A stretch of 64,000 bases of DNA from an uncultured archaeon (GCA_963704435.1 OY969902.1:200949-264948), one strand, 5' to 3'; shown: positions 14,739-32,532, numbered from the stretch's first letter. Notes: generated by a model not told the origin, from the letters alone. A program made the numbers and translations.

Positions 14739-14809
14739 TTCACACCTCTTGTTTAAGGGCTTCTAATGGCGGGCATAAGCCTTAATGGGGAGTTGAACAA
14801 TTCGGTTTA

Positions 14810-14910
14810 CTACGCTGAGAGTGCTACCTGAGTGAATGTGCGATGCCCCACGTGTTTTTCCATGCAGTCACCGACGTCTATATGAACTGGCTGAATTTAT
14901 ATAGCTAGTT
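14810..14910. repeat. Intergenic repeat family, copy 1
   Basis: CTGAGAGTGCTACCTGAGTGAATGTGCGATGCCCCACGTGTTTTTCCATGCAGTCACCGACGTCTATAT differs from copy 2 at about 5 of 69 positions by manual alignment. The minus strand holds a micro-ORF, MEKHVGHRTFTQVALSA (14810..14863). Confidence 0.7.
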
Positions 14911-14954
14911 ACGCATAGAATCCCACCAAAATCTTTCTTCGTTTCTCGGTTCTT

Positions 14955-15812
14955 TCATACTCTGGCCCTTAGCCAGTCCAGGACATCGCTATTTTGGATA
15001 TTCCTCTCTTCCGAGAGGTAGCTGAAGAACTTGTAAAGCGAGTAGTAGACCTTATCCAAATCAACCTTCTGAAGTATGTTGCTTCGCGTAAAGGCCTTGA
15101 ACTCTGATTTCAACATGGATTTAGTCACTTCCTCAAAAGACCCCGCGAGAGTGCCTTCCAGGTACATCATGAACAGTTCGAGGTTACTTTCGTGCTGCCC
15201 CGCAGTCCGCTCCTTCAGTCCTTCCTTTGAGATCAGGTACTTTTCGAAGCTGACGAGATAGCCGCTCCACGAATCCTGAAACTTCGCGGCCCTGGCAAGG
15301 CCCTCGAAACACCTGCCGTCGTAATCCTGCACCATGAACTTGCCGGAGAAGAAATACGGGCCATTTCCCCTTGAGTTTATCCTTGCGATCAGCGTGCTGT
15401 GCAGATCCAGCTTCGGGAGCTCGATCGTCTCCAGGTCATAGCGCCGGTTCCTCGTATCGATCAGCGTGACGCGATCCTCGGCCTGCGCCTCGACCCTGAA
15501 ATATCCGAACTTGCTTTTGCAGCCCTCCAGCAGGACTTCTTCCTCGTCCTTCGTTAGCTCTCTGGGGTGATGCTTGAGATACCACTGCACCAATGGCATG
15601 TTCTCCACCATGAAGGACGGCACGAGCCAGGCGATAAACATCGACTCGGCATCGTCCTCTACGATGCTTGGAGCCTTCAGCAACCCCGAGAACTCATACT
15701 GGAAAAGGCTGATGGCCGCGTTAAGGTCATCCTTTCCCATGGCGCGCACGACCTTGAACGTTGCACTGTTCCAAAGACTGGCAAATTCGCGTTTGTCTTC
15801 CTTCCACGCCAT
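14955..15812 (-). CDS. Hypothetical protein; the C-terminal third resembles a phage-integrase SAM-like core-binding domain
   Basis: 285 aa. The C-terminal helices (FEKYLISKEGLKERTAGQHESNLELFMMYLEG...YSLYKFFSYLSEERNI) resemble the N-terminal SAM-like domain of tyrosine recombinases. No catalytic domain is present. This is a weak call. Confidence 0.4.
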   Translation of the reverse strand: MAWKEDKREFASLWNSATFKVVRAMGKDDLNAAISLFQYEFSGLLKAPSIVEDDAESMFIAWLVPSFMVENMPLVQWYLKHHPRELTKDEEEVLLEGCKSKFGYFRVEAQAEDRVTLIDTRNRRYDLETIELPKLDLHSTLIARINSRGNGPYFFSGKFMVQDYDGRCFEGLARAAKFQDSWSGYLVSFEKYLISKEGLKERTAGQHESNLELFMMYLEGTLAGSFEEVTKSMLKSEFKAFTRSNILQKVDLDKVYYSLYKFFSYLSEERNIQNSDVLDWLRARV

Positions 15813-15964
15813 GGCGTACGCCCCTACGAAAATAATGCACTGTAATAATTCTTAACGTTATTTCCTACCGGCTCAACTTAGCCGTATATTCTTTCAGTAT
15901 TAATGAACAATGTTGTTCATTACTAATGAGAAGATATATATACCTTGCCGTTTATTCCCTAACT

Positions 15965-17182
15965 ATGATACTAAAGGATGCGCTCAGGGAGATAGTTAAG
16001 AGGCAGAGGGCGAGCTTGGAGTCCTCCGAGTACGGGGTTGAGAGGGAGCTGGCGGGCAAGGTGGAGCTCGGTCTTCCCTACGCCCTGGTGATATCGGGCG
16101 TCAGGAGATGCGGCAAGAGCACCCTCCTGCGCCAGCTCACGAAAAGGCTTCCCAGATACTATTACCTCCATTTCGAGGATCCGCTGCTCTCGGCCTTCGA
16201 ACCTGAGGACTTCGGGAAGCTCGACGACGTGTTCCGCGAGGAATACGGAGATCGGGAGTACTACCTTCTCGACGAGGTCCAGAACGTCAAGAGCTGGGAG
16301 GTTTTCGTCAGGTCGAGGCTGGACGCGGGCAAGAAGTTCCTCATAACCGGCTCCAACGCCTCGCTGCTCAGCAGGGAGCTCGGCACCCGCCTTACAGGGA
16401 GGCATCTCAACATCGAGCTCTTCCCGTTTTCGTTCGGCGAGATGCTCCTGCTGAAGAAGAGGCGCGCGAATCTTGACTCTTTCGACGAGTATCTCGTGAA
16501 TGGCGGCTTTCCGGAATACCTGAGGCACGAAAGGCAGGAAATACCCCAAAGGCTGTTCACGGACATAATCCAGAGGGACATAGTGGCCAGGCACGGCATA
16601 AGGGACGCGAAGACCCTAGAGGAGCTGGCCCTCTATCTGCTGACCAACATCGGAAAAGAGTTCTCGTACAACGGCCTAGCGAAGACGTTCGGGCTTGGCT
16701 CGGTAAACACAGCAATATCCTTCGTCTCCTATCTGGAGGACAGTTACCTGCTGTTCACGGTGCCGCGGATTGACTTTTCGCCGAAGAAGAGGGTCACGGG
16801 CCAGAAGAAGGTCTATTCCATAGACAACGGGCTATCGGGCGCCAACTCCGTGTCGTTCTCCTCGGATGCGGGCAGGATGCTGGAGAATGCCGTATTCCTC
16901 GCCCTGAGGAGGAAGCACAAGGACATATTCTATTTCGCAGGGAAAAAGGAGTGCGATTTCCTGGTCAAGGAGAAAGGAAAGATAACGATGGCCGTGCAAG
17001 TCACATACGAGTTGAACTCCGACAACAAGGACAGGGAACTGGAAGGGATGGTGGAAGCCATGGAAAAGTTCGGGCTGGAAGAGGGCCTGCTGCTGACCCG
17101 CAACCAAGAGGATTCGCTGAAAGTACGGGGAAAACGGATAGCCGTCAGGCCCGTCTGGAAGTGGATTGGTGAAAATCCCTGA
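15965..17182 (+). CDS. AAA-family ATPase with DUF4143-type C-terminal domain
   Basis: Walker A is GVRRCGKSTLLRQL and Walker B is YYLLDEVQ. The architecture is typical of archaeal AAA_14/DUF4143 ATPases. I prefer the ATG at 15965 (MILKDAL...), about 25 nt downstream of a TATA-like AGATATATATAC, over the track start at 15926. Confidence 0.75.
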   Translation: MILKDALREIVKRQRASLESSEYGVERELAGKVELGLPYALVISGVRRCGKSTLLRQLTKRLPRYYYLHFEDPLLSAFEPEDFGKLDDVFREEYGDREYYLLDEVQNVKSWEVFVRSRLDAGKKFLITGSNASLLSRELGTRLTGRHLNIELFPFSFGEMLLLKKRRANLDSFDEYLVNGGFPEYLRHERQEIPQRLFTDIIQRDIVARHGIRDAKTLEELALYLLTNIGKEFSYNGLAKTFGLGSVNTAISFVSYLEDSYLLFTVPRIDFSPKKRVTGQKKVYSIDNGLSGANSVSFSSDAGRMLENAVFLALRRKHKDIFYFAGKKECDFLVKEKGKITMAVQVTYELNSDNKDRELEGMVEAMEKFGLEEGLLLTRNQEDSLKVRGKRIAVRPVWKWIGENP

Positions 17183-17239
17183 AGCACGGTATGGGGATAC
17201 GAGATTCCATCCGTCTCTTTGAAGCGGCCTGAGGGGCAT

Positions 17240-17415
17240 CTACAGCAAAAGTACAGTTCCCCAATTCAGCCCTGAGAGTGATACCTGACTGAATGTGCGA
17301 TGCCCTACATATTTTTCCATGCAGTCACCGACGTCTATATATAAAAGCTATCTATATATAGCTTCTGATGGAAAACGAGCGTATGAGCTACAAATCAAGA
17401 AAACGCGCATTCTAG
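17240..17415. repeat. Intergenic repeat family, copy 2, with a truncated AbrB-like gene 5' end
   Basis: It has the same core as copy 1. The minus-strand micro-ORF is MEKYVGHRTFSQVSLSGLNWGTVLLL (17240..17320). An AT-rich palindromic TATA region (CTATATATAAAAGCTATCTATATATAG) follows. Then comes ATGGAAAACGAGCGTATGAGCTAC..TAG, homologous to the first ~12 codons of the AbrB-like gene at 24653. Confidence 0.7.
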
Positions 17416-17495
17416 GGACTCTGAATTACGGCTAGGAAATAGTCTGCGAATATGCTTATTAAGGCGGAAAACCATAATACAATCTAGTGCATAAG

Positions 17496-18074
17496 ATGCC
17501 CGAGAACTCCGGCGCTATGGTGGTCTTTGTTGGTGGGCCAAGGGCATCCGGAAAAAGCGCAGTTTTGAGCGAATTGAAGGCTTCAGCGCGAGCATCAGGA
17601 ACGGAAATCGAGATAGTGCCGATGTATAGCGTCTTGTCGCAGATTGGGCGAGACCGGTACAACAAAACAATAGGGGAGATCAATGCAGAGGCCCCGCTTG
17701 CACAAAGCATACAGATCGAGATCATAAAGCGGGTGAAGACATCGCCTGCCCAGGTCGCCCTGCTAGACGGCCATTATCTGAGCCAGGATGGTAAATCTAT
17801 GACGCCAATCTACCGGACTGACCTTGCTGATTACTCTGGGCTATTATCCGCTCACATAGTTGTGACTGCGCCGCCAGAAATGATACTTGAAAGAAGGCTC
17901 AACGACGAAGATTGCGGACGGAATCTGGATATTGGACTGATAAAGACGGAACAGGATGGAGAGATTGGTGAGGCAAAGAGAATAGGCAAGCTTTATGATA
18001 CGCCTGTCTATGTTATAGAAAACGTAGATATGAAAAGAACGGTCGCCGATTTCAGGAGCTTGCTTCATGTTTGA
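17496..18074 (+). CDS. P-loop NTPase, nucleotide/nucleoside-kinase-like
   Basis: Walker A is VFVGGPRASGKSAV and a Walker B-like strand is VALLDGHY. The size (~190 aa) and layout resemble adenylate-kinase-fold enzymes. The track start at 17487 is GTG; the first ATG is at 17496. Confidence 0.6.
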   Translation: MPENSGAMVVFVGGPRASGKSAVLSELKASARASGTEIEIVPMYSVLSQIGRDRYNKTIGEINAEAPLAQSIQIEIIKRVKTSPAQVALLDGHYLSQDGKSMTPIYRTDLADYSGLLSAHIVVTAPPEMILERRLNDEDCGRNLDIGLIKTEQDGEIGEAKRIGKLYDTPVYVIENVDMKRTVADFRSLLHV

Positions 18075-19470
18075 TGAGCGGAACGCGATTGAATTCGTCC
18101 TGGGATGTGGGAAAGTGGAGGACAATCAAAAAATAGATAAGCGTAGAACTCTGCTAGTGGGGGAACGCGATATAAAAGAACTTGACGAAGGCGGCAGGGT
18201 CCACTGCGTCTCCAAAAAGACAGGACTGCAGGTAAATTCGCTAACCCACAAAGAGATCGGGCTAAGATCAAGAGGATTGGCTATTTTGGATTCAGGCAAC
18301 AAGATAGTCTACCAAGAAGACAACTCGCACCTGCAGCACTTCTTTCCCATACTTATCAGGGATTTTGCGAAATTGGCATACGAATATACCAAGTCTAACA
18401 AGCCGCTGCCCATAGTGTCAGTAGATTCGCACGATGTAATAGGCTGCGATTTTTGCTGCCAGGATTGCCTCTCCGGCGGCGGACTGCTCGTCGCGAAATC
18501 AGGCATAAACAAAGGCTTCAGCCCAGCACTGAAGAGCTACATACACATACTTTCCGAGATAGCTGAATACTCGAAGCGGAGAGGCGTAGATTCGGTAAGA
18601 TTTGAGCAGTCCGGAGAGGGAAACCCGGACCTCTATGCGCTCCGCCCAAAACTCATAAAAGAAGCTAAGAAGCGCCATAACATGCAGACGGTGTATGTGA
18701 CGACAGGAAGCCAGATGAGCGAGGAACTGGCCGAGTCTCTCGTAGATAATGCGGCGTTCATACGAATAAGCTTCCCTGGAATAGATCCGCGAACGTACGC
18801 ACTATACTCCAACCAGAAGAAATACACTTTCAACGATTCTATCGCACGGCTGAAGAAATTGATCAAGATGAGGGCCGAGGCGGGGCGTGAACAGGAATTG
18901 CTAATAGGGGCCCGGGTTGCGCTTAGGCCCGAGGAGGAGCTCCTGTACTACGACTTCGGCAAGCTTATGAAGAAGATCGGAGTGGATTGCGTACAACTGG
19001 TGAAAATTCTGGTTCCAAATGGCCTGAAATGCCGGAATTTCCCAATTTCTGCCACTGCGATACGCCAGCTGGAAAAGCTCAAGACGCTGTCTGATGAGCA
19101 CTTCTGCGTAGCCATGCCTAATGTGCTAGACTACCTGTACTATGCGAGATACATAAAGGACAGGAGTAACTTCACGGACGTGTGCTACAGTTCTAGAATT
19201 CAGCCAGTCCTGACAGGCAACGGGCTCTTCGTATGCACAAAAAGCGAGGTCATGTACTCCAAAGAATACCTTTTTGGCAGCTTCAAGGGCAAAAAGGGCG
19301 AGATAGAGCAGTTTCTCAGCAAGAAGAATGTTGACAAAGTGACCAAGAACGTGCCTGCGTCATGCTACACCTGTGGAAACATATTCGACAACCTGCTCTT
19401 TGACAAGATGGTCAAGCTCGCCCGCCAAGCCAAAGGACCGCTATCATTTTATGAGGTCATATCTTACTAA
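18067..19470 (+). CDS. Radical SAM enzyme with a C-terminal Cys-rich (SPASM/twitch-like) module
   Basis: It has a CxxxCxxC motif in IGCDFCCQDC and a SAM-binding GGE-like motif, SGEGNPDL. The C-terminus reads CYSSRIQPVL..FVC...SCYTCGNIFDNLLFD. It overlaps the upstream gene by 8 nt. Confidence 0.7.
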   Translation: MFDERNAIEFVLGCGKVEDNQKIDKRRTLLVGERDIKELDEGGRVHCVSKKTGLQVNSLTHKEIGLRSRGLAILDSGNKIVYQEDNSHLQHFFPILIRDFAKLAYEYTKSNKPLPIVSVDSHDVIGCDFCCQDCLSGGGLLVAKSGINKGFSPALKSYIHILSEIAEYSKRRGVDSVRFEQSGEGNPDLYALRPKLIKEAKKRHNMQTVYVTTGSQMSEELAESLVDNAAFIRISFPGIDPRTYALYSNQKKYTFNDSIARLKKLIKMRAEAGREQELLIGARVALRPEEELLYYDFGKLMKKIGVDCVQLVKILVPNGLKCRNFPISATAIRQLEKLKTLSDEHFCVAMPNVLDYLYYARYIKDRSNFTDVCYSSRIQPVLTGNGLFVCTKSEVMYSKEYLFGSFKGKKGEIEQFLSKKNVDKVTKNVPASCYTCGNIFDNLLFDKMVKLARQAKGPLSFYEVISY

Positions 19471-19481
19471 AAGGTCGCAAA

Positions 19482-20456
19482 ATGGTCAAACTTAAAGAAC
19501 TGGGGAAAAAGCAGGAACTCTTCGAAGAGATGCCAGCAGATAAGATGAGGGTTTTCAGCAGCCCTACGCTATGGCTTGCCTCCGGGAATGTCCTACTCCA
19601 TAGCTGGCCAAATACGCAGCCGTTCTACTTCTATCCCTTCAGTGTACTGGATTTCTTAAATAACAATCGGAGAGAGCTGAGGATTATAGATTCAAGTCGT
19701 ACGGCAGCGATAGAGGCAATTAAGAAATTGAAAGGCTCAAAGGTCCATTTTGAGGGTTTGAAACCCGACCTGATCGATTTCGCCCTAAAGTCGGGCCACA
19801 AGGTGTCCGTCATATGCGATCTGGAAGAAATAAACCCCAGCAACCTAGAGACCTTATCGTGCATAGACTTTCTTATAGTGAGGATAAACTCAGCTAATCA
19901 GGACCTGTCCAGGTTAAAAGGCATACCTAATAAGAGGCTCCTGTCTGGAATAAGAGTGTATCTGTCAAGCGATAGCAATGACTTTACTTCTTCAGCCAAA
20001 GAGGCCAAAAGACTGGGCTTCGACTTTATCCACGTGTCCAAGAGGCTCGTAGGATCAAGGCAAGCATCCTTTCCGGAAAGCCAGAAGGACAGGATTCACA
20101 ACCTGCTGGGCTTCCAGTCAAAGACGTTCAAGGTCTTGCTCCCGAAGAACCTTAACACGGTTTTTAATGAAAAATTCGCTATAAGCGATGAGTATGATAA
20201 TTCGAGCAACTGCTATTTTTCGCGATTCAGGAGAGTTTTATACAAAGACAAATTTTATCCCTGTTATACCCATTCAATAGTTGAGAAAGGAAAATTCTCT
20301 TCGGAAACGTTAACTGGATTGAGGAAAAAGTCGAAACTGTTCGGAAAGGGCTGCACGGACTGCGCATGTATCTATGAAAATGACCTATTCGAGGACATTT
20401 CCAAGAGCTCGAAAAGAATCAAGAACAAAAGGTTTTTACTTGGTTATGACTATTAA
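19482..20456 (+). CDS. Hypothetical protein sharing the Cys-rich C-terminal module of the preceding radical SAM enzyme but lacking CxxxCxxC
   Basis: 324 aa. The C-terminus CYFSRFRRVL..YPC...GCTDCACIYENDLFE is clearly homologous to the C-terminus of 18067..19470. I saw no canonical radical-SAM cluster motif in the N-terminal two-thirds. Confidence 0.6.
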   Translation: MVKLKELGKKQELFEEMPADKMRVFSSPTLWLASGNVLLHSWPNTQPFYFYPFSVLDFLNNNRRELRIIDSSRTAAIEAIKKLKGSKVHFEGLKPDLIDFALKSGHKVSVICDLEEINPSNLETLSCIDFLIVRINSANQDLSRLKGIPNKRLLSGIRVYLSSDSNDFTSSAKEAKRLGFDFIHVSKRLVGSRQASFPESQKDRIHNLLGFQSKTFKVLLPKNLNTVFNEKFAISDEYDNSSNCYFSRFRRVLYKDKFYPCYTHSIVEKGKFSSETLTGLRKKSKLFGKGCTDCACIYENDLFEDISKSSKRIKNKRFLLGYDY

Positions 20457-20491
20457 TAAATTAGGATGAGAATAGAATTTGGTGATGCGAT

Positions 20492-20947
20492 ATGGAAGAA
20501 AATGATAGGTTCGGCCTTGGGGTTTTCGTGTGCTTCTTTAACAAAGACTATTCAAAAACCCTGTTATTGTTCAGAAACGCTGAAAAAAGGGCGCGCTGGG
20601 GCGCGGATTGGGGAAATGTCGGAGGCGTAGTCGAGCTTGGAGAAACGACGGTACAGGCTGCTATAAGGGAGGTTATTGAGGAAATAGGGATAAATCTGAA
20701 GCCATCGGACCTGAGTCTCATTTACATCAAAGAGACGCTGAATTTCATTCCACACATACAGGCAGTGCATTTCGTCTACACCACCACAATGGATGAGAGC
20801 CGAAAGATTAAATTGAATAGCGAATCGGATAGGTACGAGTGGTTTGAAGTCTCAAATTTGCCGGAGAGGATGCTTGATTCAAAGAAAGATATGCTAATGT
20901 GGAGAGACCTGGCAAAGTCTGGCCGCAAGATAGCGCAGAACAAATAG
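20492..20947 (+). CDS. NUDIX hydrolase
   Basis: The Nudix box GGVVELGETTVQAAIREVIEEIGI fits GX5EX7REUXEEXGU. A Shine-Dalgarno-like GGTGAT lies 5 nt upstream of the ATG. Confidence 0.85.
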   Translation: MEENDRFGLGVFVCFFNKDYSKTLLLFRNAEKRARWGADWGNVGGVVELGETTVQAAIREVIEEIGINLKPSDLSLIYIKETLNFIPHIQAVHFVYTTTMDESRKIKLNSESDRYEWFEVSNLPERMLDSKKDMLMWRDLAKSGRKIAQNK

Positions 20948-20955
20948 GTGAGTGG

Positions 20956-21780
20956 ATGCGCGGTTTGATGCGCACTCCGATTAAATATCCCGGATCAAAG
21001 AATTATTACGTAATCAAACACGTCTTGCAAATCCTGCCGCCACATGCAGTTTTCATAGAGCCCTTTTGCGGAGGAGCTTCAATATTCTTCGCAAAGCCCA
21101 AAGCAAAGAGTAATTGGTTAAATGACATAGATGCAGAGCTAATAACCACATACAAAGTATTGAGGGACAATCCAGATGGATTGATTGAAGCTATAAATGG
21201 CGCGGAAATCTCCAAGGAGAATTATCGCCATTTCAAGATGGATTTTAAGCCTAGAAACGATCTTGAAAGAGCCCTAAGATGGCTATACTTGGACCTAAAT
21301 TCTTATCCAGATACGATAAATCTAGTGCCTAAATTCTTAAAATTTGACGATACCACTCACACAAATATGCGCAGACTTACAGAAGAGCTGCATAGGGCTT
21401 CCAGAAAGCTGCAGCATGTCGATCTGACTGTAATGGATTTTGCTCATACAATAAAAGAAGCACCGGAAGGTGCATTTCTATTTATAGACCCTCCATACTC
21501 CCTGCACAACTCCCCCTCTAAAGCTAAAAAATACCTAAACAAATTCGGAAGGAAAGGACACACAAAACTTGCAACCTTACTTAGAGACAGGTTTAACGAG
21601 ATTAAATTCATGCTTTGCTATAGGGCAGATTCCGAAGCGGAAAGCCTGTACACTATAGATGAAAAGATGTACAAAAAAGTTTTCAGATTCAAGGCAGAGC
21701 ACCCTATATTAAAAGGCAATAAATTAAAAATGAAAAAAGAAGAATATTCAGAGATGGTTCTTACGAATTATAAGATATAG
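20956..21780 (+). CDS. DNA N6-adenine methyltransferase, Dam/D12 class
   Basis: It has the N-terminal IKYPGSKNYY, the SAM-binding FIEPFCGGASIFF and the catalytic FLFIDPPY. I prefer the start at 20956 (AGGTGA 4 nt upstream, just after the NUDIX stop) over the overlapping track start at 20899. Confidence 0.85.
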   Translation: MRGLMRTPIKYPGSKNYYVIKHVLQILPPHAVFIEPFCGGASIFFAKPKAKSNWLNDIDAELITTYKVLRDNPDGLIEAINGAEISKENYRHFKMDFKPRNDLERALRWLYLDLNSYPDTINLVPKFLKFDDTTHTNMRRLTEELHRASRKLQHVDLTVMDFAHTIKEAPEGAFLFIDPPYSLHNSPSKAKKYLNKFGRKGHTKLATLLRDRFNEIKFMLCYRADSEAESLYTIDEKMYKKVFRFKAEHPILKGNKLKMKKEEYSEMVLTNYKI

Positions 21781-21797
21781 GTCATCTAGTGAGGGGT

Positions 21798-24652: not shown

Positions 24653-24880
24653 ATGACGATGGAAAACGAGCCCGTAAGCTACCGGTCGAGGCGGACCCAC
24701 AAGCCGGTCGCCAGGGATTGCAGCAGGGTCATGCGGCTGTCGAACGGCCAGTTCCTGGTGACCGTGCCAAGGGAGATCACCAGATGGAAGCACATAGGCA
24801 AGGGCACGCTGCTCAAATGGTCCGATGCCGGACCCGGAAGGGTTATCTTGGAAGTCGTGCAGGGCCTGGACGATGCATGA
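24653..24880 (+). CDS. AbrB/SpoVT-like (MazE/VapB-type) DNA-binding protein
   Basis: 75 aa. The segment RLSNGQFLVTVPREITRWKHIGKGTLLKWSDAGPGRVILEVV matches the swapped-hairpin AbrB pattern. I prefer it over the overlapping 146-aa ORF at 24478..24918. Confidence 0.55.
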   Translation: MTMENEPVSYRSRRTHKPVARDCSRVMRLSNGQFLVTVPREITRWKHIGKGTLLKWSDAGPGRVILEVVQGLDDA

Positions 24881-24963
24881 AGAGGTGCTGGTTCAAATGC
24901 AGGACTCCTCGCCCATAAGTAGGGACATAGTTAATGCGAAGAAGAGATATGCTCTTTGGAAAA

Positions 24964-25641
24964 CTAACTAGGTAGCGTTTGGTTCGACAGGCTCCAGAGG
25001 AATCTCTCTATTGCTACTATTCCTTCTCCAGCAGCTTCGGCACCTACTGAAGATATGGCATCACCAGTCACTTCTCTTCCTGAAATGTAAGGCGCCGGAG
25101 TCTGATTGTTAGTTACGAATCCGCTTATTTCTTTGTCCATCACATATCCGGCGATAGTTTTAGTAGCCTCTTTGGCAAGATTAATGGCATCCTTCTCCTT
25201 GAGTGTGCCTTTCTCATACTCCTCCTTAAGCTTCATCGCCTCGAATGCAATCTTTCCGAACTCGTAGGCAGCGCAGGCCACTGTGAAGATGAGCATAGGA
25301 CCCGGGAAGGCCACCGCTAAAGCCTGTAGAAGAACTTTCTTTGCCACGCTAAGCGCTACATTCCTGAAGAAGGCGTTAACAGGGACCTCTTCAGTCATTG
25401 TGTTAGTTTTAGGACTCCATGAAGTGGCTCTTTTGACATATGAGACAGAAGTCTCGTGTCCCCTAAACGAAACGGATGCACTTTGTGTTGTAAAATCAGC
25501 TAATTTCTTCACGCCTTTAGGTAAATGAGCCTTAACCCTGCGGCTTTCTTCCGAATCATCATCACCTCCACCGAATCCGCCACCACCTCCACCTCCTCCT
25601 GAATATGATTTCTCTCCTTTACCTCTGTTTCCGCCACCCAT
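24964..25641 (-). CDS. Hypothetical protein with a poly-Gly/acidic N-terminus and a central hydrophobic segment
   Basis: 225 aa. It starts MGGGNRGKGEKSYSGGGGGGGGFGGGDDDSEE and has the hydrophobic stretch LLQALAVAFPGPMLIFTVACAAY. The gap to the upstream gene is 2 nt, so they probably form an operon. Confidence 0.5.
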   Translation of the reverse strand: MGGGNRGKGEKSYSGGGGGGGGFGGGDDDSEESRRVKAHLPKGVKKLADFTTQSASVSFRGHETSVSYVKRATSWSPKTNTMTEEVPVNAFFRNVALSVAKKVLLQALAVAFPGPMLIFTVACAAYEFGKIAFEAMKLKEEYEKGTLKEKDAINLAKEATKTIAGYVMDKEISGFVTNNQTPAPYISGREVTGDAISSVGAEAAGEGIVAIERFLWSLSNQTLPS

Positions 25642-25643
25642 GT

Positions 25644-26657
25644 CTACACCTTTGCTAGCAAAATGTCCTTCTTCTCATAGTCCGGAAAGCAGTCCGAAAG
25701 CTTCCTGTGAGCTTCGAGCAGCGCTAGAGCTATGTGCTGGTCTTTCAGATTCTTCATTACGCACTCTATTGTCGGCTTGCTGCGGTATCTCTGAGGCAGT
25801 TTGACCGGATTACTAAGAGGTGATGAAGTAGATGGACTCACAGGCTGACCCTGATATCTTCGGGTCCATTTGAGAGTTTTCTCTTTTCCACCTTTGAATA
25901 TGCGTCCCTTGAATGCAGCAACAAAGTGGCTCTCCACCATATAGCCATTGGCAAAACCAAAGTCTTTAAACGTCTTGAGTGACCCTCCACCGCAAATCAG
26001 CAGCCAGGGCACTCTTCTCGATATCTCTCTGGCGAAACCTATCGCCTGCGTTAGTTCGCGCGCTGACCCTTTGTACAAGTAATCCCCGGCATGGAAAGCG
26101 AATAGACCAATGCCCAACTGTTTCAGGCATTCGATATACCAACCGAGCCTTTCATAGTTGTTTCCCTTGACGAGCCCGATAGGAATGCTGTTAGGGCAGG
26201 CCTTCTTGAGATAAACGGCTCCCCTCAGCATCTTTTCCAGATCACCATCACAGTCTTCATCGTTATATGTCTCTCCGTCTGGCGTAAGGTAGTAGTCAGG
26301 CTTAATGTCGTTTATGATATTTGCATGCTTCTTCCACGACACACACGCTATGACTCTGTTCCTGGCGATGGAGGACAAAAGAACATTGCAACCATGGTAC
26401 TCTAGCTTATCGTGGATTCCGATGGCTCTTAGCTCCTTGAGCATGGGTGTATCTATGCTTCCATCTCTCTTCACCATGTCCTGAAGACGCGCCACGACTC
26501 CCGGAGCGGGGGCGTATCGGCAAGGATTGTGGGTTAGAGGCTCGCCAAGCTTCTCCACAGGCCATATGAACTTCCTTAGGCATTGATCGATGGGGTGGAA
26601 ACGTGCGTCTACCCAAGAAGCCGCTATTTCGTCCATTACAGACCCGTTTCCGGACAT
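25644..26657 (-). CDS. TIM-barrel protein resembling tRNA-guanine transglycosylase / DpdA-type transglycosylases (tentative)
   Basis: 337 aa. The order of motifs resembles the TGT family: DIKPDYYLTPD, then IPIGLVKGNNYERL (compare f-G-i-v-Q-G-g-x-y-x-d-L-R), then LFAFHAGDY, then WLLICGGGSLKTF...FANGYMVESHFVAAFKGRIF (compare h-l-f-G-x-G-x-P ... G-v-D-x-F-D ... A-r-x-G). I saw no CxCxxC zinc motif, so this is a weak call. Confidence 0.35.
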   Translation of the reverse strand: MSGNGSVMDEIAASWVDARFHPIDQCLRKFIWPVEKLGEPLTHNPCRYAPAPGVVARLQDMVKRDGSIDTPMLKELRAIGIHDKLEYHGCNVLLSSIARNRVIACVSWKKHANIINDIKPDYYLTPDGETYNDEDCDGDLEKMLRGAVYLKKACPNSIPIGLVKGNNYERLGWYIECLKQLGIGLFAFHAGDYLYKGSARELTQAIGFAREISRRVPWLLICGGGSLKTFKDFGFANGYMVESHFVAAFKGRIFKGGKEKTLKWTRRYQGQPVSPSTSSPLSNPVKLPQRYRSKPTIECVMKNLKDQHIALALLEAHRKLSDCFPDYEKKDILLAKV

Positions 26658-26931
26658 TATGCTCGCCCTTTCTTAGATACTAAACGGCATCGCCTACCAA
26701 ATACGACCCCACCCCAATCGTGTTTGGCGCTGTTTGAATCCCTAAGAGATTATGCCTGACATTCCGCAAGCAAAATCTTTCAATTTTTCGGTATGCAGCT
26801 TGAACCAGAGTATACAAGGATAAGACAGAGCTATCTGCGAATGCTTAATTGTTGCACTAAAACTATTTAAATCCTAAAGGTAGCCTGAGAGCAGGACCTA
26901 TTCTTTATGACTTAGAATGAGAAATAACCCC

Positions 26932-27636
26932 TTATTTTACCTTAGCTTCATCAATCTTTCTAGCTAGCAAACTTGCAAAAACTAAATATTCATACGCTTT
27001 CTTTGGGTCTTTTTGTACTATTCTACTATGACTCTTTGGGTCTTTTACTGCTAGCATTGCACCAGCAAATATAAACTTAAATCCTTCCTGTTCTTCTTTT
27101 TCAGAGTTTTTAGAAGAGTATTTTATTCTTAGCAAAGGAGCGTCTTCTTTGAAGGCAGTCATCATAAGAGTTTTCCCTATTTGATTGATTTGACTTTTAG
27201 CGCGCACCAGAATTTCTATTTCTTTAAATGCAGCGAATATCGCCTCCGGATAATGTTCATTATTAAATAGCTTTTCAGATGCTTTTTTGATTCTTGGGTG
27301 TAATAGTGATAAATCATATACGCTCTGGCTGACTATAAGTTTTGACTTTGTTCTATTATTTTCTGAACCCAACTGTAAAATTGCCCATTTCTCATATGCG
27401 TATATTCCATATGCTGTCTGAATCAAATTAACATACAAAATAGAACCCTTTACATTAAACCTCATCACTACGCCTGGAGCGATTGAAGTAATATTTGTCA
27501 AGACCTCTTTGTAATAAATTGCTATTGTCGCATAACTTATTCCCCTAGCATCAGGTTTACCAACATCTTGCAGCTGCAGGGTTATGGAACCAGTAACGAA
27601 CTTATGTCCAACATAAATTTTTGTTTCTGGACTCAT
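26932..27636 (-). CDS. TIGR02391-family (Abi-like, ymh-type) protein with a unique N-terminal domain
   Basis: The C-terminal half is FNNEHYPEAIFAAFKEIEILVRAK...IGKTLMMTAF...EEQEGFKFIFAGAMLAVKDPKSH...EYLVFASLLARKID. This matches the conserved pattern of TIGR02391 proteins, which are common in R-M and abortive-infection neighbourhoods. The gene is very AT-rich. Confidence 0.65.
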   Translation of the reverse strand: MSPETKIYVGHKFVTGSITLQLQDVGKPDARGISYATIAIYYKEVLTNITSIAPGVVMRFNVKGSILYVNLIQTAYGIYAYEKWAILQLGSENNRTKSKLIVSQSVYDLSLLHPRIKKASEKLFNNEHYPEAIFAAFKEIEILVRAKSQINQIGKTLMMTAFKEDAPLLRIKYSSKNSEKEEQEGFKFIFAGAMLAVKDPKSHSRIVQKDPKKAYEYLVFASLLARKIDEAKVK

Positions 27637-27944
27637 TGCACTATATGCCGGATTTGGAATTTCGTCACCTCATCAATAAAAGATGCCCTAGTCGGGGCCA
27701 GTTTATTTCTTAAAATAAGGAATAAAGGAATAAAAGCCCACGCCTTGACTTGTCAAAGTTTACGTCCTTAGAAGCCCTGCACTCAATCAAGGAGTACGAG
27801 ATTTGCGCTTAAATCGCAAACTTCTGCCCGCAAATCAGCCCCTGAGGTACTCGCACCGAACTCAGGTGAGTTGACCACTGCGTTAAAATAAGGGGATAAG
27901 TCATAAGCGTTATAGTAGACAGATAACGTTATCATGGTGCTATT

Positions 27945-28337
27945 ATGATCCGATGTCCATACTGCGATGAGCTGCGCTATTTCAGCAGCGGAGCGTCCTA
28001 CAGAGTTCACAAGTGTCGTTACCACAGGGGAGTGACGTACCGGCAACCCCAAAAAGTAGCGGAAGAGGCTGCGATAACTGGAAAGCAGCAGATCGAGGCG
28101 CAATCCAGAGCACCGCAAACACCGCTTCGGCAAGCCTTACCGCAGAGGCCGCAGAAATACTCCGGCCACGACTCACAAGTCCCTCGGGCAGACAATTGGG
28201 CCTGGGAGATAGCGCAAGAAGCAGTAGTGGATGTTCTCAAGGAGCGCGCAGAGGCGGAGAGAAAGGCGTTCAACGAGAAATATGCGAAGTGGAGGGCACA
28301 GCAGAAGCAGCATGGAGATCATATTCCACTTGATTAG
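27945..28337 (+). CDS. Hypothetical protein with an N-terminal C2H2-like zinc finger
   Basis: 130 aa. It has CPYC-x14-H-x4-H followed by a charged helical tail. A 116-aa ORF on the opposite strand competes with it, so coding status is uncertain. Confidence 0.35.
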   Translation: MIRCPYCDELRYFSSGASYRVHKCRYHRGVTYRQPQKVAEEAAITGKQQIEAQSRAPQTPLRQALPQRPQKYSGHDSQVPRADNWAWEIAQEAVVDVLKERAEAERKAFNEKYAKWRAQQKQHGDHIPLD

Positions 28338-28376
28338 GTTTGAGTTCGCATTCTAGTCAAGTAAATAAGATAATAT

Positions 28377-28913
28377 TTAACTCCCTAAACTCTTCAGTGA
28401 AGTGTTTATTTTGTCCATTATAAGTTTCTTTCTTTCCTCTAAAAATTTATAATAAGTGTCAATACCCCAGTCACCTGGTGGAATTAGATGTTCTTTCTTT
28501 TCTTCCTCGCTCAAAGTCGTTATCCATTCTTTATAAGGTGTTCCTGTCTTTCGTTTGTTTCCTATTGATGAGATATATCTTATATTGAATATCCTATCTA
28601 TATTCTCTTCGGGAACATTTGCATCAGTTAATTCACTTCTTGAAAAGATATGGTCCTGTTCCGGCAAATTATTTTTTGAACTTGGATTATAATTTATGCT
28701 ACTATAAATAAGGTTGAGCACCAAATAGCTACTTTTATCATTATACTCTATATTATTTAGGAATTCCTCCGTTAGATTTAGGTTTTTATTATTTTTGATC
28801 GCTCGCGCCTTTATTTCTGCAAGAGGGAATTCTTTACTTTGATTGTTATCTATTTCTTCTTTTATGCCATACAAAATCGTATCAGATGCCCCAGCAAAAA
28901 GTCCAGTTAACAA
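28377..28913 (-). CDS. DUF1524/HNH-like nuclease domain protein, probably the C-terminal remnant of a DUF262-DUF1524 (GmrSD-like) gene
   Basis: 178 aa. EQDHIFSRSEL...IFNIRYISSIGNKRK matches the His-Me finger pattern of DUF1524. No DUF262 (DGQQR) N-domain is present. The ORF starts directly next to the IS200-type element. Confidence 0.5.
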   Translation of the reverse strand: MLTGLFAGASDTILYGIKEEIDNNQSKEFPLAEIKARAIKNNKNLNLTEEFLNNIEYNDKSSYLVLNLIYSSINYNPSSKNNLPEQDHIFSRSELTDANVPEENIDRIFNIRYISSIGNKRKTGTPYKEWITTLSEEEKKEHLIPPGDWGIDTYYKFLEERKKLIMDKINTSLKSLGS

Positions 28914-28914
28914 T

Positions 28915-29575
28915 GACCTCCTCCCCCGACTAAAGTCGGGGGTATCCCCTGCGCTCTAGGCGGCAAGTCTCATTTGTCCGTACTGATCCTGCTTTCTGAT
29001 GTAATTTTGTATCGTCTCCTCGTTCTGAGGGCCTACGCTTCCGTTACTGTATCCTTCACTCCAGAAATGCCCTCTCCAATACCTAAGTCGATGGTTTGGC
29101 ATTTCTTTGAAGACCACGTACGCCGAATATCCCTTCAGCAGTTGCACCGCGGTTGAAACTGACATAGTATTTGGTACGTCAATCTCAAGATGCACGTGTT
29201 GAAAGTCTTCTCCGACAGCGAATTCTTTAATTCCGATTCCATGTCTACGCGCGGCGTCATAAATCGCATCGTGTATTATTCGGCAGGTCTCTGGATTTTT
29301 GAACATCCTGTATCGATATTTCGACACAAAAACCATGTGCTGCCAGTTGTACCTGTGGATGCATGCCGTCGCGCTTTCCTTTATATCCCTTACATTGTTT
29401 ACACTATTCACAATAACACTTCGGCGGCAGAAACTTCAGGACCGCAAAAATTCTGGGGCCACACTGCCGTCGCTAATCCTTCTCAGAATTTGTTAAAAAT
29501 AGAGCAGGAACACTCAAAGTGGGGTCAATTCCTGTCCGCGGGCTAAAGCCCGTGGTATACCTTGACCCCACACCC
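28915..29575 (-). mobile_element. IS200-type element (tnpA only); ends approximate
   Basis: The Y1 transposase gene is flanked by two similar same-orientation hairpins with TAAA loops. They are CCCCCGAC-TAAA-GTCGGGGG (28923-28942) and CCGCGGGC-TAAA-GCCCGTGG (29536-29555), each followed by TAT(C/A)CC. Confidence 0.6.
28956..29411 (-). CDS. tnpA: IS200/IS605-family Y1 (HUH) transposase TnpA
   Basis: 151 aa. It has the HUH motif (FQHVHLEI), SVSTAVQLLKGYSAYVVF, RGHFWSEGY and a C-terminal IQNYIRKQ with the catalytic Tyr region. Confidence 0.85.
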   Translation of the reverse strand: MNSVNNVRDIKESATACIHRYNWQHMVFVSKYRYRMFKNPETCRIIHDAIYDAARRHGIGIKEFAVGEDFQHVHLEIDVPNTMSVSTAVQLLKGYSAYVVFKEMPNHRLRYWRGHFWSEGYSNGSVGPQNEETIQNYIRKQDQYGQMRLAA

Positions 29576-29596
29576 CCTAATAATATTACAATGTAT

Positions 29597-29616
29597 TTTT
29601 GTGTAATTACACAAAA
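29597..29616. promoter_or_regulatory. Perfect 20-bp palindrome upstream of 29630..30448
   Basis: TTTTGTGTAATTACACAAAA is its own reverse complement and ends 13 nt before the ATG at 29630. Confidence 0.4.
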
Positions 29617-29629
29617 GCAGAGGCAGACC

Positions 29630-30448
29630 ATGTCAAATTCGGAACAACAAAAGTTCAAAAAACAAGTTATTGCAGATTTTGATAGAGGTTCTAATGCTGC
29701 TGAAATTATCACCAAATATAACATACAAAACACACCCAACAGAGAAGAAGGTAAACCTACTCGCAAAACCATCTATAATTGGAAGAATGAATACGATGCG
29801 AAAAAGTCTATAGACAGCCCAAAGGTATTCAGACTGAGCAAGAAGAAGCAGATGGAAGTCAAAAAAGAATTTGAAAATATGTTTTCGGTCTTTAAATCAA
29901 AGAAAATCTCCGATATGCGTGTAGCATTAAGGAGCATAGACAACTATATGAAAAATTATGGTTGCACTCCTAACGAGACGCAAATTGATTTGCTGATACC
30001 TCACATTAAAGATGTCGAACTCAGGTACGATATCCTGCGAACTATATTCGGAGTAATGGAAGAAAATCCCAAAATCTTTAGAAAAGTCAATGAACAAAAA
30101 TTATGTAAAAAATTGCATGCGCTACTCAAGGAATACGAGCCGAATACTTACAAGAAACCAACCGTGGAATACCTGTTTTTTATCCTAGGGCACTATAACG
30201 ATCCTATCATAGTGGACAGATTAGTGCAAGATGCCGAACAATGTAAGCCAGAGCTGCTTAGTCGCATTAGGTCTTACTATGCACAAAAGTACTCCGTTAA
30301 AGTAATTGAAGAATGCAGGAATGAGCTATTCGATGCTGCCCAAAAATTGCAAAGAGAAGGTAAAAGTGATGCTGCTGATTTTATACAACAGATAGTGGCT
30401 ATAGCAAGCAAGAATGCAAGAAATCCCCCTGCTCGATTTAAGCCTTAG
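29630..30448 (+). CDS. Hypothetical protein with an N-terminal HTH-like segment
   Basis: 272 aa from the ATG at 29630 (MSNSEQQKFKKQVIADFDRGSNAAEIITKYNI...). The rest is helical. The track start at 29519 would read through the IS200 hairpin and the palindrome. Confidence 0.5.
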   Translation: MSNSEQQKFKKQVIADFDRGSNAAEIITKYNIQNTPNREEGKPTRKTIYNWKNEYDAKKSIDSPKVFRLSKKKQMEVKKEFENMFSVFKSKKISDMRVALRSIDNYMKNYGCTPNETQIDLLIPHIKDVELRYDILRTIFGVMEENPKIFRKVNEQKLCKKLHALLKEYEPNTYKKPTVEYLFFILGHYNDPIIVDRLVQDAEQCKPELLSRIRSYYAQKYSVKVIEECRNELFDAAQKLQREGKSDAADFIQQIVAIASKNARNPPARFKP

Positions 30449-31037
30449 ACTTCTCCCTTGAATGCGCATTCTTTTCCAACGCCACAAAATCGCTGGCATC
30501 CACGATTCTGCCCACGCAGCGCTCCACAAATATGATTGAGCTTTCTTGGCCCAGCGGTCTGCTGGTTGAACAGCAATCCTTTATCATGAAAACGTTGTAC
30601 CCCCGATGCACGGCATCGACGCCAGTCTCCCTCACACAGCAGTCAGTCTGTTCACCTACCAGATAAATATCGGTTATTTTCAGTTCCTTTAGTAACCCAT
30701 CCAGCCCGCTTCCACAGAAACCACTGTATCCATGCTTCTCAAGGATGTGGTCGCTCTTTTCCGGTGCCAGCTCTTCGATGGTCAGCGCGCCGTCTGTGCC
30801 CTTCATCGACTGGCGTCTATGGGCACTGTGTCCTATAAACTTGAAAATTGGGTCGTTTTCGGTAAACGCGCTGTTTACGTAGATTACTGGAATTCCCTTT
30901 TTGTGCGCTGCCTCTATCACTTGTTTTATATTCCCAATCAGCCTTTCCCTTTCGTCCACGGCTACCAGCGGCCTTTCTCCATAGACGTAGTCTTTCACCA
31001 TGTCCAAGACAAGCAGCGCTTCCATCAGCTCAACCAT
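30438..31037 (-). CDS. Isochorismatase-family cysteine hydrolase (nicotinamidase-like)
   Basis: Motifs are ALLVLDMVKDY, KHGYSGFCGSGLDGLLKELKITDIYLVGEQTDCCVRETGVDA, with the catalytic Cys within DCCV. Confidence 0.8.
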   Translation of the reverse strand: MVELMEALLVLDMVKDYVYGERPLVAVDERERLIGNIKQVIEAAHKKGIPVIYVNSAFTENDPIFKFIGHSAHRRQSMKGTDGALTIEELAPEKSDHILEKHGYSGFCGSGLDGLLKELKITDIYLVGEQTDCCVRETGVDAVHRGYNVFMIKDCCSTSRPLGQESSIIFVERCVGRIVDASDFVALEKNAHSREKSKA

Positions 31038-31202
31038 TATAGATTAAAGCTTAAACAAATATATGAGGCTTGTGCTACCTTTTACGGCAAAGGATGTAAT
31101 GAAATCAAGTATCGCCCGCACAACAAATTCATGGAGCTTTACGCAAGATAAAAAGCCAAGCTAAAGCTCGCCGTATCCTGAACATATGGTAATTATCAGT
31201 CT

Positions 31203-32393
31203 TCATCGTCTATTTTCCAACACCCCATGAACCGCATCCCTGCTCTTCGGATCGAGCTTCTCCATCAGCAGGTTGACCGCCTTCATCATGTCGTCCAGTT
31301 TCTGCCTCACCGACTCCAGCTCGCTGGCCTCCTCCACTGGGCTAACGTCCAAGGGGCTGTGGCACTTGCTGCAGTACTTGGCCGTCATCTCATTTACCTC
31401 CTGGCACTTGTAGCAGACCTTCACCGTGAGCCTCGGCTTCACAGGCTCTCCCCTGCCGATCGTTATGCCGTTCGCCTTCATCACGGCGTCGTCCACGTCC
31501 TTTCCGCTCAGGTGCACGTAGACCGCCGCCATCTGGCTCGCCCCGGTCCAGCCGAAGTACATCTTGAGCTGCTGCTCGGTCATGCTGTTCGCATATAGGC
31601 TCGCCCTGCTGTGCCTGAAGAGGTGCGGGTGTATGCGCTTCCTTATGCCCGTCCTCTCCTTCAGGTCCCCGAGCAGCTTCCTCACATTAGGGTAGTCGAA
31701 GGGATTCCCGTGGGACGTGAGTAACAGGGCTGATTCCGGCGGCAGGCCCCTGCCGCGCTCGTTGAGGTAGTTGGACAGGTACGGAACCGAGAAGACGAGC
31801 GTCACCCGCCTCTTGCCCGTCTTGCCGTCCACCATCGCGTAGCTTGGGCTTTCCGCGTTCAGGACGATGTCCCTTACCTTCAGGTTCAACAGCTCCCCTA
31901 CGCGCATCCCTGTGTCGTACAGGAGCGATATTATGGCCCTGTCCCTCTGGCTCCTGCACGCGTTTATGAGCCCGGCCACCTCGTCCTCAGTCAGGAGCTC
32001 CTCGGGCAGCTTCATGGACTCCATCTGGCCGACTTTGATCCACTTGACTATGGAAGGATAGTCTTCTGCCGAATAGAGCCACTTGTAGAAGCTCTTCAGG
32101 GTCTGCTTTATCTTCCTCAGGCTGTTCACGGCCTTGCCGCTCTTGTTGAGGTACAGGACAAGGCGCTCTATGTCTTCCTTCGTGGCCTTCTTGGCGTCCT
32201 TGCCTAGGTAGGGGAAGACGGCGCGCAGCTCCCTTATCACCCTGGCGACGGTCTGGGGCTTCCTGTTTAGCAGGCCCAGCTTCGCGCCGAACGCGAGAAC
32301 GTAGCCCCTGTTGGGCTCGGAGAGCTCCTCCTCTACCTTCCTGACCTGCATGGCCAGTATGTACTCGCCCTTGTGCAGGTAGTCCCTTTTCAT
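31203..32393 (-). CDS. Tyrosine recombinase/integrase with a C-terminal zinc-ribbon extension
   Basis: 396 aa. It has an N-terminal SAM-like core-binding domain, a catalytic region (DTGMRVGELLNLK, HPHLFRHSRASLY, AAVYVHLSG) and CYKCQ...CSKCH at the C-terminus. Its start lies 68 nt from the 3' end of tRNA-Thr. Confidence 0.85.
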   Translation of the reverse strand: MKRDYLHKGEYILAMQVRKVEEELSEPNRGYVLAFGAKLGLLNRKPQTVARVIRELRAVFPYLGKDAKKATKEDIERLVLYLNKSGKAVNSLRKIKQTLKSFYKWLYSAEDYPSIVKWIKVGQMESMKLPEELLTEDEVAGLINACRSQRDRAIISLLYDTGMRVGELLNLKVRDIVLNAESPSYAMVDGKTGKRRVTLVFSVPYLSNYLNERGRGLPPESALLLTSHGNPFDYPNVRKLLGDLKERTGIRKRIHPHLFRHSRASLYANSMTEQQLKMYFGWTGASQMAAVYVHLSGKDVDDAVMKANGITIGRGEPVKPRLTVKVCYKCQEVNEMTAKYCSKCHSPLDVSPVEEASELESVRQKLDDMMKAVNLLMEKLDPKSRDAVHGVLENRR

Positions 32394-32460
32394 AGATTTT
32401 ATGTCTGTTTCGCCCCCTTTATAGGCGCGCTGGTCAAGGGAGTCGCACTTCTGGCTGTCC

Positions 32461-32532
32461 AGCCCTGAGAGGGAATTGAACCCCCGACCTACTGCTTACA
32501 AGACAGTCGCTCTACCACTGAGCTACCAGGGC
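32461..32532 (-). tRNA. tRNA-Thr (anticodon UGU)
   Basis: Manual cloverleaf: GCCCTGG-TA-GCTC-AGTGGTA-GAGC-G-ACTGT-CTTGTAA-GCAGT-AGGTC-GGGGG-TTCAATT-CCCTC-TCAGGGC-T. It is 72 nt and CCA is not encoded. Confidence 0.85.

Follow-up and report, generated by a model that had tools for sequence, protein, structure and literature searches.

Organization of the island at tRNA-Thr

A stretch of 64,000 nucleotides (nt) from an uncultured archaeon (GCA_963704435.1, OY969902.1:200949-264948), referred to here as the window, carries a genomic island that extends from position 14815 to a tRNA-Thr(UGU) gene at 32461-32532. The island is probably composite, consisting of members and remnants of one family of small integrative elements that became stacked at the tRNA gene by successive integration and then decayed. 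An earlier note on this DNA had described a mosaic tRNA island with a tyrosine integrase and many defence and mobile genes, produced by several acquisitions and later decay. That description is supported by the arm sequences, the attachment (att) repeat and the composition presented below. It lacked internal structure, which is provided by three copies of an arm at 14815, 17272 and 24562 that split the island into three units, E1, E2 and E3. The main features, in window coordinates, are the following.

32461..32532, minus strand: intact tRNA-Thr(UGU), the integration target (ARAGORN; Rfam tRNA 70.8 bits)
32460..32473, no strand: tRNA-proximal att core CAGCCCTGAGAGGG (plus strand), covering the final 13 nt of the tRNA and one further nt; the same 14-mer at the distal end in locus L058 and a 13-mer repeat in locus L059
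32394..32459, minus strand: integrase-side arm, between att core and integrase start; a near-identical arm is present in locus L047, and the tRNA-Arg element of locus L050 conserves part of it
31203..32393, minus strand: intact tyrosine integrase, 396 aa (PF00589 2e-23; phrog_1 2e-36)
24653..24880, plus strand: 75-aa AbrB/MazE-fold protein (predicted fold), the distal-end gene of the element family
24562..24661, plus strand: arm copy c3 with half core CTGAGAGGG, left end of E3
17272..17417, plus strand: arm copy c2 with a 15-codon AbrB-like stub (14 aa by tblastn)
17267..17280, no strand: distal att core CAGCCCTGAGAGTG, 13/14 match to the tRNA 3' end; 14/14 at the homologous position in L058
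14815..14906, plus strand: arm copy c1, the outermost recognisable element end, with half core CTGAGAG and without AbrB gene
24562..32473: E3, a complete element (integrase, integrase-side arm, 130-aa protein, AbrB-like gene, arm) with decayed cargo
about 17390..24561: E2, an operon that follows the distal core, arm copy c2 and its AbrB stub
14815..17266: E1, a remnant encoding a DUF4143 ATPase and carrying a 285-aa open reading frame (ORF)
13680..14738, minus strand: insertion sequence (IS) copy B, an IS4-type DDE transposase, identical to copy A (9788-10846)

The integrase ORF starts 68 nt from the 3' end of tRNA-Thr(UGU), as stated earlier and confirmed here by ARAGORN, Rfam and Pfam, and both genes lie on the same strand. 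The integrase gene is unbroken and of full length (396 aa, against 393-401 aa in its homologues), and the att core lies 67 nt outside it. The catalytic residues R164, H257-x-x-R260 and Y292 can be read in the sequence; the signature is taken as R164/H257/R260/Y292, with the catalytic Lys and the second His/Trp left out. The C-terminus of the protein is a CxxC...CxxC zinc ribbon. The integrase-side arm probably carries the integrase promoter.

On the plus strand the 3' end of tRNA-Thr reads CAGCCCTGAGAGGGAATT. A repeat search recovered three direct copies of one 50-120-nt sequence, the arm of about 100 nt; a degenerate pattern of this arm matches exactly these three sites in the window and none in 100 shuffles, and no further copy was found in the window with an nhmmer profile. 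All three copies start at CTGAGAG, a motif inside the last 14 nt of the tRNA, within which a random 7-mer would fall with a chance of about 8/16384. The junctions compare with the tRNA end as follows.

c2 junction (17267): CAGCC-CTGAGAG-TG, 13/14 match to the tRNA end, containing the 12-nt match reported in the earlier note
c3 junction (24562): ctgga-CTGAGAG-GG, 9 nt match to the tRNA end
c1 junction (14815): ctacg-CTGAGAG-tg, 7 nt match to the tRNA end

The arm copies contain a TATA-rich inverted repeat, which in c3 is 21 nt long (24614-24664) and overlaps the start codon of the AbrB-like gene. Copy c3 leads to the start of the 75-aa AbrB-like gene and c2 to the stub, while c1 has lost its AbrB-like gene; apart from the c2 stub, tblastn found no further AbrB copies in the window. 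A candidate decayed tRNA 3' half to the left of c1 (14776-14814) is not significant, as 55 of 1000 shuffles score as high.

That the window holds no long direct repeat of the tRNA, as had been reported, was borne out by a direct-repeat search, in which the best match was 12-15 nt. The 12-nt match, previously set aside, takes on a different meaning: four homologous elements identify it as the distal att. It is accepted as such because homologous loci carry repeats at the same position, and the repeat at 17267-17280 is a real attachment-site repeat. The integrase-linked unit spans about 15.2 kb, with the distal core (17267-17280) at one end and the tRNA core (32460-32473) at the other, and is split at 24562 by arm c3. 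No tandem repeats or CRISPR were found within the island.

Homologous elements and the history of the island

The integrase has 954 homologues, and all those examined adjoin tRNA genes. The most informative loci are listed below, with integrase identity, target, cargo where given, and repeat.

L047 and L058: integrase 93% aa identity (P0001); tRNA-Thr(UGU), 67 nt upstream of the integrase; repeat 14/14, CAGCCCTGAGAGGG
L059: integrase 69%; tRNA-Thr(UGU); methyltransferase and others, 6.2 kb; repeat 13/13, CCCTCTCAGGGCT
L050: integrase 56%, 63 nt after the tRNA; tRNA-Arg(GCG); SduA_C (Shedu) and HNH; repeat 11/11
L066: integrase 42%; tRNA-Thr(UGU) that has an intron and shares the 3' end; D12 methyltransferases and a restriction-enzyme-like N-terminal domain; distal end not reached

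L047 contains the closest homologue of the integrase, in a chromosomal context that differs from that of the window, together with a cargo of low guanine-plus-cytosine (GC) content that includes an N6_N4 methyltransferase with RE_CfrBI, and AbiJ/Abi_C. L058 overlaps L047 over 6.1 kb at 100% and continues into an AbrB-like gene, the arm and the CAGCCCTGAGAGGG core; beyond this distal core lies a DUF4143 ATPase with 91.3% nt identity to window positions 15659-17384. The element in L059 has the order tRNA-Thr(UGU), integrase, cargo, AbrB-like gene and arm; the host FBPase gene lies 20 nt beyond its CCCTCTCAGGGCT repeat, and GC rises there from 0.30-0.41 to 0.50-0.56. In L050 the last 11 nt of tRNA-Arg are repeated 6.2 and 7.1 kb downstream, and the nearer of these copies directly adjoins a homologous arm and AbrB-like gene; this arm is found at E 2.6e-14 by a profile built without L050. 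Accretion is suggested at the L050 tRNA-Arg too. The two copies of the L050 repeat lie at 16131-16141 and 17022-17032 of that locus, 0.9 kb apart, and low GC extends past both. In L066, a tRNA-Thr(UGU) with an intron of about 37 nt after the anticodon was read by eye at 8970-9080 and had been missed by ARAGORN.

A common element plan emerges from these loci, with the integrase at one end, an arm of about 100 nt and the AbrB/MazE-fold gene at the other, and a variable cargo in between, mostly genes of defence type (restriction-modification, Abi, HEPN and others). Both the arm and the AbrB-like gene occupy the distal end in L047/L058, L059 and L050, and homologues of the AbrB-like protein are found at distal ends in L058, L059, L060 and L050. 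The integrase family targets extreme tRNA 3' ends via an identity segment of 11-14 nt, and the tRNA is regenerated. Homologues of both the integrase and the AbrB-like protein come from Micrarchaeota, some of them in metagenome-assembled genomes (MAGs) labelled Marsarchaeota.

Micrarchaeota (DPANN) are also identified as the host, in place of the Thermoplasmata named earlier, by the Memo-family gene at 32601-33431, whose 33 best relatives lie in Micrarchaeota-type MAGs at 40-66% aa identity. In several of these relatives the orthologues of the glycosyltransferase (5573-6802) and thrS (3531-5459) genes are found 0-9 kb past Memo, compared with about 26 kb in the window. Conserved gene order had been set beforehand as the observation that would speak against an island; the relatives do not share the island order, and the proposal of an island survives. 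This search via Memo showed no synteny of the tRNA in 32 of the 33 Micrarchaeota-type relatives, and no exact empty site was recovered among the Memo relatives, all of which are distant (Memo 50-66% aa). An unoccupied tRNA-Thr(UGU) is present in L015, with a differing 3' end.

The integrase and tRNA region shares 90.8% nt identity with L047, and E1 shares 91.3% with L058, while Memo and endonuclease III share 72-77% with the closest relatives in GTDB. The higher identity of the mobile parts, about 91% against 72-77% in core genes, indicates horizontal transfer between species. The same comparison bears on the idea that the integrase is a housekeeping Xer-type recombinase, adjacent to the tRNA by coincidence, with the low-GC DNA having come by unrelated routes. 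The host-like GC (0.59) of the integrase gene and the wide distribution of its protein family in Micrarchaeota at similar length would suit such an enzyme. Its homologues, however, follow tRNA-Thr or tRNA-Arg genes at a distance of about 65 nt in chromosomal contexts that are unrelated; at three such loci the tRNA end is repeated directly and the cargo is low in GC; and the integrase region is closer to L047 than core genes are to the closest relatives in GTDB. A housekeeping role with coincidental adjacency is scarcely credible.

A block-by-block shift in composition, noted earlier by inspection, was quantified by GC and tetranucleotide L1 distance. The backbone has a GC of 0.59, and the L1 of its 2.5-kb windows is 0.208 +/- 0.036 and never exceeds 0.308; the parts of the island take the following values.

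E2 (operon block): GC 0.438, tetranucleotide L1 0.567
E3: GC 0.464, tetranucleotide L1 0.474
26.7-30.4 kb: GC 0.402, tetranucleotide L1 0.673
Integrase gene: GC 0.59, host-like, not anomalous
DUF4143 gene: GC 0.554, host-like, not anomalous

The earlier note had placed the start of the island at IS copy B. This boundary does not hold, since copy B has its own target duplication of 7-8 bp, (A)TTCACAC, and sits 76 nt outside c1. Copy A is likewise flanked by a duplication, ACTGAAGT, and both copies are thus simple insertions. The contiguity of the low-GC DNA and the position of the IS near the left edge might still favour one 18-kb island, from IS copy B to the tRNA, acquired in a single event. 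Such an origin is highly improbable: besides the separate target duplication of the IS, the segment contains three arm copies and three compositional classes, and its parts differ in their affinities, E1 and the integrase being about 91% identical to L058/L047, the E3 arm 79% identical to the L058 copy (83% including the AbrB gene), and the operon unrelated to both.

An integrated provirus or plasmid was also considered. An integrase beside a tRNA gene is typical of archaeal proviruses, and many ORFs in the island are unannotated. Against this, PHROGs matches the integrase only, and at the sequence level Pfam recognises no capsid, packaging, replication or conjugation domain in the window, L047 or L059. 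The arm was not found in IMG/VR, where its two matches are due to chance and have dissimilar flanks, and it has no matches in JGI metagenomes. A viral or plasmid nature is therefore very unlikely.

Most of the evidence on the stacking of several elements concerns the arms. The three copies share 78-85% identity with each other and 77-79% with the L058 copy. As they are about as divergent inside the window as from L058, a recent internal duplication is disfavoured and independent acquisitions fit better. The main alternative history starts from a single integration, after which the arm copies and the operon block either came from related elements, through exchange of modules or homologous recombination, or arose as duplicates. 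It is in keeping with the presence of one integrase only and the lack of integrase-side arm remnants at c2 and c3, with the fact that no two arms are more alike than c1 and c2 (85%), with the occurrence of the operon elsewhere without arm or integrase, in the manner of an independent cargo cassette, and with the module exchange documented between tandem archaeal elements (PMC8371274). It does not sit well with the mutual divergence of the arms, nor with the exact ending of all three at CTGAGAG, which homologous recombination does not predict. A single integration of this kind is unlikely, and successive integration of related elements is the preferred history.

Several observations nevertheless weigh against successive integration. 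No second integrase or integrase pseudogene was found in the 64-kb window by tblastn, and sequence searches of the window found no remnant of the integrase-side arm to the left of c2 or c3; simple tandem integration consequently needs extra deletions or secondary-site events. Copies c1 and c3 hold just 7-9 nt of the core, and the 12-nt match at c2 is by itself not significant within window statistics (BLAST E 0.44). E1 may be a remnant that was transferred along with the rest, or else a flank that has been conserved. The L047/L058 element consists of two contigs from different samples joined via their identical 6.1-kb overlap, and the comparison of about 91% with 72-77% involves L047 and the relative L011, whose contig names (contig_30163 and contig_30164) hint at one assembly but which are not proven to be one genome. 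PHROGs and domain scans recognised no genes for replication or transfer in the members of the family. Finally, neither a circular form nor an empty site was found among the metagenome contigs recovered, and the island seems to be fixed in the populations that were sampled.

These metagenome contigs are 99-100% identical to the window; all six that cross the tRNA run into the integrase, and all five that cross the E2/E3 junction match the window. Identical contigs end at 29457 and 29554, just outside the IS200 gene of E3. Three other contigs identical to the window (L004, L003 and L008) end inside the tRNA at 32470, 32503 and 32505, which may reflect k-mers shared with other tRNA-Thr genes or, equally, population variation at the att site; these ends are not used as evidence.

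For the succession of integrations the following mechanism is proposed. The integrase would recombine the att site of the element with the identical last 13-14 nt of tRNA-Thr(UGU), and integration would restore the tRNA and leave a duplicate of the core at the far end of the element. E1, E2 and E3 may then represent successive integrations at or near the same tRNA, the oldest lying farthest away, with the older units subsequently losing their integrases. CTGAGAG would be the 7-bp strand-exchange (overlap) region, which would explain why c1 and c3 retain that half of the core only; their junctions could have arisen by secondary-site integration sharing the overlap alone, or by deletions that stopped at the core. 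On the circular element, transcription of the integrase gene and of the AbrB-like gene would run in divergent directions with attP between them, and the AbrB-fold protein may regulate both promoters, probably via the inverted repeat over its own start codon.

Cargo genes of the three units

The remaining genes of the island, from the tRNA side outwards, are as follows.

30438..31037, minus strand: isochorismatase-family hydrolase, E3 cargo (PF00857 1.5e-39)
29519..30448, plus strand: 309-aa protein, E3 cargo; no Pfam, PADLOC, NCBIfam, PHROGs or PDB match
28956..29411, minus strand: IS200-type Y1 transposase, a secondary insertion in E3 (PF01797 2.3e-27)
28377..28913, minus strand: decayed gene, truncated C-terminal third of a 600-aa protein of HEC-05, a candidate defence family (PADLOC HEC-05 1.4e-25, profile positions 407-594/600)
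27945..28337, plus strand: 130-aa Cys/His-rich protein, 62% over 68 aa to L047 14323-14526
26932..27636, minus strand: Hypoth_Ymh protein, E3 cargo (PF09509 5.5e-30; PADLOC Aga_HEPN 4e-12, PD-Lambda-3_B 2e-11)
25644..26657, minus strand: candidate distant TGT-superfamily protein (perhaps DpdA-like), 337 aa, E3 cargo (PADLOC TGT 1.6e-4)
24964..25641, minus strand: 225-aa Gly-rich protein (ORF), E3 cargo, immediately following the TGT-like gene, with which it shares the strand
17487..24490, plus strand: seven-gene operon, E2 cargo (Pfam; recurs in L064 and L061; GC 0.438)
15926..17182, plus strand: AAA_14/DUF4143 ATPase, E1 cargo (Pfam; PADLOC PDC-S01, a candidate defence family, 2.2e-109)
14955..15812, minus strand: 285-aa ORF of E1 (NCBIfam TIGR02225 8.9e-4, residues 188-274 only, a weak likeness to the XerD N-terminal domain)

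Among the genes named in the earlier note, the ATPase, the operon, the Abi-like gene, the IS200 transposase and the isochorismatase were recovered with Pfam or PADLOC, and the AbrB-like and TGT-like genes are weakly supported. The Hypoth_Ymh family is the Pfam counterpart of the TIGR02391 label given to the Abi-like gene, and the HEC-05 remnant is taken as the counterpart of the DUF1524 nuclease remnant. The helix-turn-helix label attached to the 309-aa protein finds no support in any of the five databases given for it above. Clustering of defence genes in the island is shown by the PADLOC matches to PDC-S01, a type II methyltransferase (8e-39), Aga_HEPN/PD-Lambda-3_B-like and the HEC-05 remnant, with weaker ones to TGT and pVip; no complete known multi-gene defence system was recognised in the island by PADLOC.

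The 75-aa protein has no Pfam match and no sequence match in PDB. Its AlphaFold model (pLDDT 60.6) has a beta-beta-alpha-beta-beta fold, for which the top Foldseek matches are MazE, SpoVT and AbrB at non-significant E values of 0.2-1.4, with pSSVx C68 also among the top matches and likewise weak. The protein is a probable regulator. The TGT-like protein belongs to a family of 113 cluster representatives, in which 7 of 44 aligned members weakly match the Pfam TGT family (PF01702). The protein itself has no Pfam match, and the family profile matches TGT entries in PDB weakly (E 0.4-1). The neighbouring 225-aa protein has no family match in Pfam, PADLOC, NCBIfam or PHROGs, and a PDB sequence search returned nothing for the TGT-like, 285-aa and 309-aa proteins.

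In E1, the DUF4143 ATPase is 94% identical in amino acids to the gene adjoining the distal att in L058. The first 51 aa of the 285-aa ORF are also conserved in L058. This ORF, which lacks a catalytic domain, may encode a recombinase in truncated form; by BLASTP it is not significantly similar to the integrase.

The operon of E2 encodes an AAA_17 kinase-like protein, a radical SAM protein, a 324-aa protein, a NUDIX protein, a D12 methyltransferase-like protein, a 633-aa radical-SAM-like protein and a GT2 protein. The 633-aa protein contains a CxxxCxxC motif and is rare, with nine homologues among 5.8 billion clustered proteins and no relatives in JGI metagenome contigs. All seven genes recur, in changed order and at 37-73% aa identity, in L064 (85-7648), and six of the seven recur in L061 (5027-11147) inside a low-GC block near a tRNA-Asn gene. 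Both recurrences are on Micrarchaeota-type contigs and are without arm or integrase. A homologue of 39% identity (L063 10001-11911) is found in a cluster with thymidylate kinases, a sugar epimerase, a glycosyltransferase, carrier-protein enzymes and an ABC exporter. Gene content thus points to a rare mobile pathway that is predicted to be nucleotide-related, and the weak viperin-like matches of the operon make a role in defence possible.

Relation to known systems and surrounding DNA

Archaeal integrative elements at tRNA genes and the gene-capture islands of Sulfolobales are reportedly the subject of work by She et al. For archaeal tyrosine recombinases, short att sites at tRNA 3' ends, tandem integration and module exchange have been described (PMC8371274). 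The elements reported here resemble archaeal elements with classical (non-suicidal, pNOB8-type) tyrosine integrases and the Sulfolobales gene-capture islands (PMC8371274) in that the integrase stays intact after integration, attB lies in the regenerated tRNA, direct repeats flank the elements, and successive elements accumulate at a single tRNA before decaying; this likeness is judged by features. They differ from the pNOB8-type elements in their DPANN host, the identity of 13-14 nt at the extreme tRNA 3' end, the zinc-ribbon integrase, the end formed by the arm of about 100 nt and the AbrB-fold gene, and the absence of recognised conjugation or replication genes.

Unlike elements with SSV-type (suicidal) integrases, those described here have an integrase gene that is not split and an attP core outside the gene. 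A short att that overlaps only the 3' terminal part of the tRNA is shared with SNJ2, which is a virus with structural genes and a distinct integrase family, whereas no viral genes are recognised here. The proteins C68 of pSSVx and C56 of pSSVi (PDB 3o27, 7xi6), from Sulfolobus virus-plasmid hybrids, belong to small archaeal mobile elements and have a small swapped-hairpin DNA-binding fold that the 75-aa protein may share, as they are among its top structural matches; however, these matches are weak (E above 1) and sequence similarity is lacking. As far as Williams (2002) is cited in PMC8371274, bacterial tRNA/tmRNA islands share the tRNA 3' target, tandem arrays with tRNA-fragment repeats, variable defence cargo between conserved ends and the loss of older integrases. 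They differ from the island described here, which has an archaeal host, an unrelated backbone and inner repeats of only 7-9 nt of the core. In mechanism the island is conventional and belongs with classical tRNA-targeting integrative elements and accretion islands. What is new is the family, defined by the zinc-ribbon integrase, the AbrB-fold gene, the arm of about 100 nt and the att of 13-14 nt, as well as its Micrarchaeota host; literature searches found no description of mobile elements of such kind in Micrarchaeota. The pSSVx and pSSVi elements, for their part, use SSV-type integrases.

These results give a concrete att site and element architecture for Micrarchaeota, which are ultra-small symbiotic archaea. 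One backbone carries different defence cargo in each genome (restriction-modification and AbiJ; Shedu-like; HEPN and GmrSD-like), which suggests a route for the exchange of immunity genes in archaea with reduced genomes, and the placement of a rare nucleotide-related operon on mobile DNA offers a lead for function discovery. A bolder proposal would make the integrase and AbrB elements undescribed, widespread and minimal cargo shuttles of Micrarchaeota that move defence genes between species, strictly needing no more of the 13-14-nt att site than the 7-bp CTGAGAG and thereby capable of capture at secondary sites, and would make the operon a new nucleotide- or DNA-modifying antiviral system instead of an ordinary biosynthetic one; we regard this as conceivable but doubtful.

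Several features of the DNA outside the island were also recorded. IS copy A splits a paralogue of the large surface protein gene (6812-8815), leaving halves at 9014-9781 and 10807-11361. On the opposite side of the tRNA, a thermopsin-family protease gene (33463-35295; GC 0.615, host-like) is inserted between Memo and endonuclease III, which are directly adjacent in most of the 33 relatives. A match to the cobalamin riboswitch (RF00174) is found on the minus strand at 1697-1831, at the Rfam gathering level, with 38.6 bits against a threshold of 31.5, a full-length match to the model and B12-box motifs. Immediately downstream of it is a long ORF that starts near 1679 and runs past the window start; this ORF has a weak, sub-threshold match to the B12-binding domain PF02310 (7e-6; 26.3 bits, cut-off 32.1). 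To our knowledge cobalamin riboswitches are regarded as bacterial, and one in Micrarchaeota would be unusual. Two small, adjacent ORFs next to thrS, at 2497-2913 and 2910-3458 (GC 0.51-0.52), have by eye only the look of a HEPN/nucleotidyltransferase pair. These ORFs lie in one of the low-GC patches outside the island, which are located at 2497-5459, 48500-50500, 52000-53500 and 62500-64000; at the right end of the window GC falls to 0.385, which may mark another island.

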